From contig JBPCLD010000097.1 of NCBI GenBank assembly GCA_051003655.1, positions 1 to 27,954 on the forward strand: a stretch of 27,954 nt of DNA. Direction: 5' to 3'. The stretch comes from Candidatus Limnocylindrales bacterium (GTDB lineage Bacteria; Chloroflexota; Limnocylindria; Limnocylindrales; CSP1-4). Numbering within the stretch: the stretch's first letter is position 1; every line of letters starts with the position of its first letter. The notes below the pieces were generated by a model that was not told where the DNA came from, did not search any database, and was given only the letters and a program-made list of their open reading frames with translations. Made by a program: the position numbers and the translations under genes. Shown here in pieces: positions 12,001 to 12,634 of the stretch.

Positions 12001-12362
12001 TCAAAGATGCGATGGGCAGTCTCGATGCGCTCGACTACCTCATCAACAATCTCGATCGTGCGCTGAACTTCGGAAACTACCTGTACGAATTCCTTCCCAA
12101 TGGAACGCTCAAGCTGACTGCAATCGATCACGGCCTCACGTTCACCAGCACCAAGGAGCGAGCCTCCGTAGTCGGCTGGACGCGCGAACTCCCCGAGTCG
12201 TATTCAGCGGACCTCAAGAAGAACCTGACTGAACTGGGCGCCAACAGGGACGCTTTCATTGCCCAGATCCGGCCGTTCATCGGGGAGGAGGCGGTGCCCG
12301 GTGTCCTTCAGCGGCTCGACACCATGCTGTCGGACATGAGGGCGAAGGAGCGCAAGCCGTGA
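9054..12362 (+). CDS. Putative CIS effector 1 (1102 aa): LQRAAGNRAV leader, Gly/Ala-rich hydrophobic region, C-terminal HipA/PI3-PI4-kinase-like domain
   Basis: GTG start overlaps the ATPase stop. LQRAAGNRAV at 9222-9251. Kinase-like motifs LFKP, REV, LDYLINNLDR..NFGN, AIDHGLTF. Confidence 0.8.
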   Translation: MSAPQAASAEKADARANAQPIVEASEAAPAELATFGGERALNDPELSHMDSRGFLSLQRAAGNRAVAALLGGLAGIQRRPKSGLAALMGESDIYAEPLSDKPVESMGYNDVKNEISDIRRWLDKQTTSTHEENRRSIRLRKLDARLQELQTPTAPKKGKDGPRGKVTVPKPLSLSETLDISNMGKADMAAELDTIVAYLRTSPGKSVQRKLAPVRAALEDALGMERVAKNEEIRKRDIAIALRPLGGNAKDQFEQVVKTIHAIKPSPDNPEVALLEPPGGGMVIPVSHEEAKALKDEAGKLIRKYARQSADLAVSAYDGYRERVVHNNKQWIVHGLVKWSTGVDDLDELEMFGDKETARGLSALVTQLVKEGNHPMGLWKAFALENFATSYAQKVGSWEAELVGGAGRWVLGLTILKEGLTLLATAGAGALITAKAAQGVSTVRAALTVGGATTAAGGGGAFVGSLAEQAAGGEGISVKKTLKATAHGAGTGLSVGGASGAGAVAKQAFGVGKAASTSGNVVRAVGAEVVSSTTVNVAAAGLQGESLKDAAVSSIASAPISAAGGVAVKNIAQGNKVVETAGGAIVGSGSNVVGALAAGKKPAEVKQAALVGAAGGAIVPHVEASAIKYHEGQAAGAGGAGGTSTDQPGGGSSGQVAGGGSSAVRPPDAPDLMSKFDLSDVGGVPAVEPPRQAPVMPVRPPPKRVVPATAVREDVGTAATLPEDVGAVRTQPEDVGGAPTQPENVGVVGTLPAAGAGRNVGSAGTLPAPDTALAATPAAPQPIVPVDAGTAAGGTGAIGPQTPPARPNARPLLPASAVPADMPAAAKPAIELHPQNQYFDKGHDIAAQPNPPTSTPTADFPADQPGRYVPTGEKPLAGLSAESSFVVKDTADSDKLHLFKPLAGETAVDRAEARGIRAGEQGPREVAAHEAAIAVGVSAPRARLVTINGQKGVLVEWQQKNTLADLALTDRAAFDRLIKSEKFKDAMGSLDALDYLINNLDRALNFGNYLYEFLPNGTLKLTAIDHGLTFTSTKERASVVGWTRELPESYSADLKKNLTELGANRDAFIAQIRPFIGEEAVPGVLQRLDTMLSDMRAKERKP
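11190..11309 (+). repeat. Four degenerate 30-bp (10 aa) coding tandem repeats in effector 1
   Basis: EDVGTAATLP / EDVGAVRTQP / EDVGGAPTQP / ENVGVVGTLP, with a fifth partial copy RNVGSAGTLP at 11325-11354. Confidence 0.85.
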
Positions 12363-12634
12363 AAACCGTTGAAATCCGCCGCCGTCGCCCTGAAGACGGG
12401 GAGATCGAGCGTCTCGCCCGTGTCACGGCCGAACCGGGGCAGCCCGCCGAATTTGACTACCTGATCCCGGAGTTTCGAGAAGGCATCGAGGTGCTCATCG
12501 CCGACCCGATAGTTGACGCGAGGGGTCGTGTCATCGCCGCCACCGACGGCGAGGCATACGTCGCCGCCCTGCCCGAGGTGTACCGCGGCTCCCGCTTTTG
12601 GGCCGAGGAGGTCCGTGAGGACGAGCTTGAATGA
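12359..12634 (+). CDS. Small protein (91 aa), putative immunity protein 1
   Basis: GTGA overlap with effector 1. Clear paralog of 18462..18749 (VEIRRRRP.DG..ERLARV...FREG...AALPE.YRGSRFWAEEV). Confidence 0.8.
   Translation: MKTVEIRRRRPEDGEIERLARVTAEPGQPAEFDYLIPEFREGIEVLIADPIVDARGRVIAATDGEAYVAALPEVYRGSRFWAEEVREDELE

Follow-up and report, generated by a model that had tools for sequence, protein, structure and literature searches.

HipS neutralises the kinase toxin HipT by occupying the site that is held in HipA by its own N-subdomain, and its residues E63 and W65 are pushed into the HipT active site, where ATP binding is blocked (PMC10627512, PMC9325769). In the hipJS and hipIN modules a HipS-like gene lies downstream of the kinase (PMC8262856), and DUF3037 neutralises a HipA-like kinase toxin (PMC12548924). 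Secretion also enters this picture, as the Legionella HipT (Lpg2370) is translocated as an effector (PMC9325769) and immunity genes accompany some eCIS toxins (PMC8213781). Our literature search found no paper linking eCIS or contractile injection with HipA-type kinases or HipS-type partners, and none describing an immunity protein for an eCIS kinase warhead. The small-protein family described here is unannotated, and the principle is known on both sides: a small protein encoded behind a toxin domain, and a HipS-type kinase lock.

The injection locus and its kinase-tipped cargos

The window, the whole stretch of 27,954 nucleotides analysed here, belongs to a MAG of 1.77 Mb that is 70% complete, and it holds a contractile-injection locus of the eCIS / PVC-like type. 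Its relevant features are as follows.

397-1533, minus strand: CIS_tube protein
1520-2911, minus strand: eCIS_core (DUF4157) protein
3943-4398, minus strand: gp19-type tube
4445-6166, minus strand: sheath
5975-6967, plus strand: Pvc16_N cap protein, first gene of the coupled operon
6964-9057, plus strand: WHD-AAA ATPase, Pvc15-like, second gene of the same coupled operon
9054-12362, plus strand: cargo/effector 1, 1102 aa, with N-terminal leader, long linker and putative kinase domain
11484-12362, plus strand: putative atypical kinase domain of cargo 1, cargo residues ~811-1102
12345-12350, plus strand: AAGGAG ribosome-binding site of small protein 1, within the end of cargo 1, 8 nt before the start
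12359-12634, plus strand: small protein 1, 91 aa, GTG start, predicted partner of the kinase domain of cargo 1
12631-18465, plus strand: cargo/effector 2, 1944 aa, leader and putative kinase domain as in cargo 1, middle different
17578-18465, plus strand: putative atypical kinase domain of cargo 2, cargo residues 1650-1944
18445-18450, plus strand: AAGGAG ribosome-binding site of small protein 2, within the end of cargo 2, 11 nt before the start
18462-18749, plus strand: small protein 2, 95 aa, predicted partner of the kinase domain of cargo 2

On the plus strand the genes are translationally coupled in the order Pvc16_N, WHD-AAA ATPase, cargo 1, small protein 1, cargo 2 and small protein 2. 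Stop and start codons overlap by 4 nt at GTGA 12359-12362 (cargo 1 stop, small protein 1 start), at ATGA 12631-12634 (small protein 1 stop, cargo 2 start) and at ATGA 18462-18465 (cargo 2 stop, small protein 2 start). The succession of Pvc16_N and AAA ATPase recurs at other loci, and the operon is closed by a convergent LuxR/GerE gene. This LuxR/GerE gene and a Cep192_D3-like protein (window 18746-22774) adjoin the kinase and small-gene pair at three other loci as well (L002, L016 and L041), often accompanied by Big_7 proteins, which suggests a conserved accessory block. Two neighbouring minus-strand genes at 22799-25240 encode proteins of 413 and 396 aa with N-terminal double zinc-ribbon domains. 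The nearest named locus comes from a Candidatus Limnocylindrales MAG whose sheath is 90% identical. A sediment metagenome, probably the source sample, is the sole sequencing run that contains the window DNA, and there are no RNA datasets among the sequencing runs listed for it.

The two cargos share only an N-terminal leader of about 70 aa and their last ~290 aa, the C-terminal domains being 66% identical. Both leaders (9054-9266 and 12631-12843) carry an LQ[RK]xAGNxAV motif. The AF2 model of the C-terminal domain of cargo 2 (pLDDT 82.6) begins at the kinase core, which follows a Pro/Ala-rich linker. PI4KIIalpha is the nearest fold (Z 15.6), followed by CtkA (13.3) and then by Fam20 and CotH; Legionella HipT (Z 10.1), HipA (9.4) and E. 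coli HipT (9.2) are further matches. The ATP-binding K92, the DRxxNxxN catalytic loop spanning D193-N200 and the Mg-binding D217 are conserved in 12 homologs, with K92, D193, R194, N197, N200 and D217 invariant. Because these catalytic residues are invariant and the fold matches lie with PI4KIIalpha, CtkA and HipA, the domain appears to be an active atypical kinase from the PI4KII / CtkA / HipA clan.

By Pfam thresholds the domain is not a member of the HipA family (PF07804 / PF20613), with no match above the gathering score. The subthreshold signals comprise HipA_C at E 0.14 and HipA_2 at E 0.15 on the domain of cargo 1, HipA_2 at E 6.6e-4 on the homolog P0058 and PI3_PI4_kinase at E 0.001-0.03 on the kinase domain, all of them under the cut-off. 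The nearest curated sequence family is TIGR03843 (SCO1664 family), matched at E 5.7e-9 by cargo 2 and at 5e-6 by cargo 1 with scores far below its cut-off, and PDC-M03A and PDC-M66A, candidate defence kinases in PADLOC, are matched faintly. A conserved LLPxSxVPxxL stretch precedes the kinase core of both cargos by about 50 aa (window 17578-17740 and 11484-11640). This region is poorly ordered in the monomer model, and contacts to the small protein are predicted for kinase-domain residues 5-6, 9, 26 and 30-32.

A rare small-protein family linked to the kinase domain

The products of the 91-aa and 95-aa genes share 58% identity and 77% similarity across 92 aligned columns (E 1e-36), and comparison of their sequences confirms them as real paralogs. 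This relationship had been proposed in a sequence-only reading of the window from the shared motifs VEIRRRRP, ERLARV, FREG and AALPExYRGSRFWAEEV, which are indeed identical in both ORFs at the positions given there. The two proteins differ in a variable centre (approximately residues 43-62), and both have acidic C-termini; their pI values of 4.6 (small protein 1) and 4.4 (small protein 2) are in keeping with an acidic family whose median pI is 4.8. The same reading had noted neither a signal peptide nor a transmembrane segment, and our inspection of the sequences likewise revealed no hydrophobic stretch able to serve as one. Its statement that the proteins belong to no known family also holds at the level of sequence, since sequence and profile searches of Pfam, NCBIfam, PADLOC and PDB sequences returned no family match, Pfam remaining blank even at E 10.

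Homologs of the small proteins form 13 clusters in 5.8 billion metagenome proteins, and about 30 small representatives of the family were found in 1.8 billion proteins. Because they are conserved across other metagenomes, the small genes are real genes and not chance ORFs of high-GC DNA. The family is rare: in a phylum-wide search of 401 genomes, it occurred only in the genome of the window and in none of the 400 others.

The small gene stands directly after the kinase domain at 19 verified loci. Searches seeded with the small proteins yielded eight loci with DNA, the two of the window included, at which the kinase lies directly upstream (W1, W2, L001, L002, L006, L007, L010 and L014). The close homologs with DNA (L001, L002/L003, L006 and L007) are all found directly behind a protein that ends in the kinase domain, distant homologs of 33-40% identity (L010 and L014) are placed in the same way, and two further places represented without DNA sequence have the same architecture. 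When the kinase was used as the seed, small homologs of 87 or 99 aa were found to overlap the stop of the kinase gene (L015 and L016), and in a metagenome scan the small gene was directly downstream at 10 of 10 informative loci, two loci having been left out, one with a contig ending inside the gene and one with a marginal match. Each pair of the window also has its own orthologous pair elsewhere, cargo 1 and small protein 1 at L002 and cargo 2 and small protein 2 at L001. Divergence of the kinase and of the small protein is correlated across 18 pairs (Mantel r 0.84); linkage would lead one to expect such a correlation, and co-evolution is in agreement with it.

Some loci depart from the simple pair. 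At one distant homolog (L010:2-2026, also L012) the kinase domain is followed by two TPR-like repeats of about 100 aa each before the stop; the small gene still comes immediately after these repeats, which argues that a kinase protein lengthened at its C-terminus is still acceptable to the partner. In a Chloroflexia MAG (L007:6190-10285) the kinase is split over three reading frames and the small gene is intact, and ~364 kb separate this pair from the one sheath gene in its genome. Decay of an orphan effector-immunity island or assembly indels could each account for this locus. Three members of the small family have no kinase at all (L046:469-750, L013:3812-4093 and L047:445-1101), the first being 49% identical to small protein 2, and these behave like orphan immunity genes. 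The member at L047, P0062, carries a Cys-rich N-terminal extension of about 115 aa (CPVC...CSDC) fused to the small-protein domain, and is the sole fused form that we found.

The sequence-only reading had taken the small proteins for dedicated kinase partners and had asked whether homologs always follow this kinase domain. They nearly always do: linkage is near-obligate from either seed, with 19 loci behind a kinase against three kinase-less members, and the family does not occur mostly without the kinase.

One alternative is that the small protein acts in loading, as a chaperone or adaptor that would keep the C-terminal domain competent for loading or pass the cargo to the AAA ATPase or the tube. 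Its place in a coupled operon with Pvc16 and the AAA ATPase is in its favour, as is the predicted binding to the C-terminal domain of the cargo described below. Against it, genes for known effector chaperones and adaptors usually lie upstream and their products usually bind N-terminal or transmembrane regions, and the families DUF4123, DUF1795 and DUF2169 were unmatched in our Pfam searches. The distance of the L007 pair from any sheath gene and the orphan members outside CIS loci also speak against a role in loading, and the predicted interface is centred on catalytic residues, not on a surface patch. We therefore regard a chaperone or adaptor as a less likely reading, and one that is quite improbable overall.

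Predicted fold and complex with the kinase

The AF2 model of the small protein (pLDDT 90.5, from a 40-sequence alignment and no templates) runs from a three-strand meander through a helix, a short hairpin and a second helix to a final strand. The earlier comparison had been with HipB only, noting that no HTH was apparent. That part stands, as the model is a strand-rich alpha/beta domain and HTH families were unmatched in Pfam, and we rejected a HipB-type antitoxin since neither the model nor the family searches gave an HTH. The comparison needs widening, since the nearest folds, although at weak scores, are HipS and HipA N-subdomain 1, the kind of antitoxin without HTH that belongs to split Hip kinases.

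Foldseek searches of the PDB gave no match at E <= 0.001, and those of Swiss-Prot models gave nothing relevant. Exhaustive alignment against 48,161 PDB representatives ranked E. coli HipS first (7ab3_B, Z 4.3, 70 aligned residues, rmsd 3.7) and Legionella HipS second (7vkb_B, Z 4.0), with HipA N-subdomain 1 at ranks 3 and 6 (4pu3_A and 5k98_A), the HipS/HipA-N range being Z 4.3-3.4; such scores of about 4 are weak in absolute terms. We take the HipS and HipA N-subdomain 1 representatives in the PDB to number only about five, and their ranking at the top is for this reason very unlikely to be due to chance. When the PDB matches of Foldseek were re-scored, HipS was again at the top, with Z 4.0 and 3.9 barely above an immunoglobulin-like background of 3.5-3.7.

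Structural neighbours in the ESM Atlas pointed the same way, with four Hip-partner families at TM 0.54-0.59: a stand-alone Couple_hipA, a HIRAN-carrying protein of 242 aa (HipN-like), HipA, and a HIRAN / Couple_hipA / HipA_C protein (HipL-like). A DUF3037 cluster was also returned (TM 0.56), and AFDB clusters contributed three HipA-N entries at low rank. The ESM Atlas feature search gave low-score unnamed viral clusters only. At the level of sequence, the Couple_hipA profile (PF13657) had no match in the genome of the window, and when the 40-sequence profile was compared by hhalign with 15 Couple_hipA domains the probability was 0.4%, with only an insignificant 17-column alignment at the LPE motif. 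A HipS-like fold is thus the best available description of the model, with homology unproven.

We modelled the small protein together with the kinase domain, both alignments being supplied, and obtained a score of 0.90 against 0.21 for the best of three controls, where the score is the model's own confidence and may draw on learned HipS-HipT geometry, those complexes being solved. Of 80 solved complexes 58 reach this mark, as do 2 of 110 mismatched pairs. Three runs shared at least 84% of contacts, with partner pLDDT of at least 86. On the kinase, the predicted interface comprises K92, D193, N197-N200, I216-D217, the 147-163 segment and some of the conserved stretch that precedes the core; on the small protein it comprises R8-R9, P11-I16, 38-46, 49, 52-56 and R76-F80. 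The variable centre, which in the earlier reading would set cognate specificity, is predicted to touch the kinase only through residues 49, 52-54 and 56. Among the pairs of lowest error, F80 and R79 face the catalytic loop and S78 faces K92 and D217. The conserved RGSRF loop is therefore predicted to sit at the site of the ATP phosphates and the substrate. The complex model supports binding to the kinase, and with R76-F80 of YRGSRFW in the catalytic cleft it fits both proposals of the earlier reading, that the proteins are inhibitors and that the YRGS segment could be a pseudosubstrate.

S78 may be a pseudosubstrate or a true phospho-switch. If the kinase phosphorylates S78, the small protein would be a substrate whose modification controls partner release or another downstream event. 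Of 49 members, 45 have S or T at position 78 and three have E or Q, which resembles phosphomimetic substitution; the serine is modelled beside K92 and D217, and serine phosphorylation governs HipS binding in HipBST (PMC10627512). A conserved Ser could, however, merely hydrogen-bond to catalytic residues, and we give the phospho-switch a slim chance of being the explanation; it is in any case compatible with inhibition by the small protein and does not exclude it.

The small protein might instead be an N-subdomain detached from a split kinase, and act, as N-subdomain 1 does in cis in HipA, as a structural or activating subunit on which folding, stability or the choice of substrate depends, in place of neutralising the kinase. 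The likeness of its fold to HipA N-subdomain 1, the tight predicted complex and the strict co-inheritance with the kinase could all be read in this way, and in HipA that domain is part of the active toxin (PMC8262856). Catalysis by the bound kinase is hard to square with the predicted RGSRF loop, which fills the phosphate and substrate site formed by K92, D193 and D217. Without a cargo leader, moreover, the small protein has no obvious means of travelling with the kinase, and kinase-less members exist. An always-required subunit would also be expected to occur fused to its kinase, and our search for such fusions found none, although this is weak evidence. We consider a split-kinase subunit unlikely.

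Taken together, these analyses lead us to consider it probable that the small protein is a HipS-like immunity or antitoxin protein that occludes the active site of an injected kinase toxin, its inhibitory effect being what we infer from the predicted complex. Each small protein would be the cognate cytoplasmic neutraliser of the kinase domain that ends the cargo encoded just upstream, and translational coupling would provide it in step with its kinase. The alpha/beta domain, similar to HipS and HipA N-subdomain 1, would clamp over the cleft between the kinase lobes and place R8-R9, P11-I16 and R76-G-S-R-F80 against the ATP-binding Lys, the DRxxNxxN loop and the Mg-binding Asp; with these segments on the catalytic residues, we propose, the kinase would be kept inactive in the producer. 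Since the small protein has no cargo leader, it may stay behind or be stripped at loading, perhaps by the Pvc15-like AAA ATPase, and the small proteins could also protect sibling cells. By analogy with the described modules and from the modelled complex, HipS-like locks on an injected kinase warhead appear to be the most economical reading, and the orphan copies and the acidic character of the family fit an immunity role. Against inhibition it can be said that the homologous N-subdomain of HipA belongs to an active kinase and that a kinase-bound fold need not inhibit; self-protection would also be less needed if the kinase acts on eukaryotic substrates only. In a broader scenario, to which we attach a low probability, the HipS-type lock would be a "detached N-subdomain", an ancient partner of the wider PI4KII / CtkA / HipA clan that reaches beyond HipA-family toxin-antitoxin modules and was recruited as warhead immunity, with the near-invariant S/T78 of the active-site loop as a phospho-switch for release at loading driven by the kinase or the AAA ATPase.

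Comparison with HipS-type locks and immunity proteins

As an immunity protein, the small protein would carry the HipS principle beyond toxin-antitoxin modules, to effectors that are injected. The unannotated family marks a kinase class of eCIS cargo, and the predicted RGSRF loop in the catalytic cleft offers a concrete, testable mechanism of inhibition. A dedicated neutraliser suggests that the PI4KII-like kinase is toxic in the bacterial cytoplasm, which bears on the target of the eCIS. These systems are under development as protein-delivery tools, for which a means of switching off a cargo enzyme with its cognate partner could be of use.

Like the HipS, hipJS and hipIN partners (Couple_hipA, PF13657), the small proteins have about 100 aa and no HTH. 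They resemble HipS in standing beside a kinase core without N-subdomain 1, as seen in the 19 verified loci and in a kinase model that starts at the core, and the hipJS and hipIN partners in being encoded downstream of the kinase. HipS-family proteins are also their nearest fold in the PDB and the ESM Atlas, with weak scores. As with E63 and W65 of HipS, their predicted reach to the catalytic site is by way of a loop that follows L-P-[ED], the equivalence of the two motifs being our own suggestion. Unlike HipS, they show no detectable sequence or profile similarity to that family; unlike HipBST, the pair has no HipB partner; and the kinase is nearer to PI4KIIalpha and CtkA than to HipA, in contrast to the partner of HipS. 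Whereas the toxin of a toxin-antitoxin module stands alone, this kinase is the C-terminal warhead of eCIS cargos of 840 to 1944 aa.

Polymorphic-toxin and eCIS immunity proteins, such as that of the EAT5 RES / Xre pair, are likewise small, acidic and coupled directly downstream of the toxin domain, and co-divergence with the toxin domain and orphan copies are further traits shared with polymorphic-toxin immunity. In contrast to polymorphic toxins, the toxin domain here is conserved and the middle of the carrier varies. DUF3037 (PADLOC candidate PDC-M66) is comparable as a structural neighbour (TM 0.56), and the faint matches of the kinase domain are to PDC-M66A and PDC-M03A; that family, however, has ~270 aa, a phage-defence context and no sequence match to the small proteins. 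Lpg2370, the Legionella HipT, differs in its Dot/Icm type IV delivery, in its tripartite arrangement with HipB and in being a true HipA-family kinase, yet it offers a close parallel in function: a secreted kinase effector restrained in its producer by a HipS-type protein (PMC9325769), as we propose for the kinase warheads of this locus.
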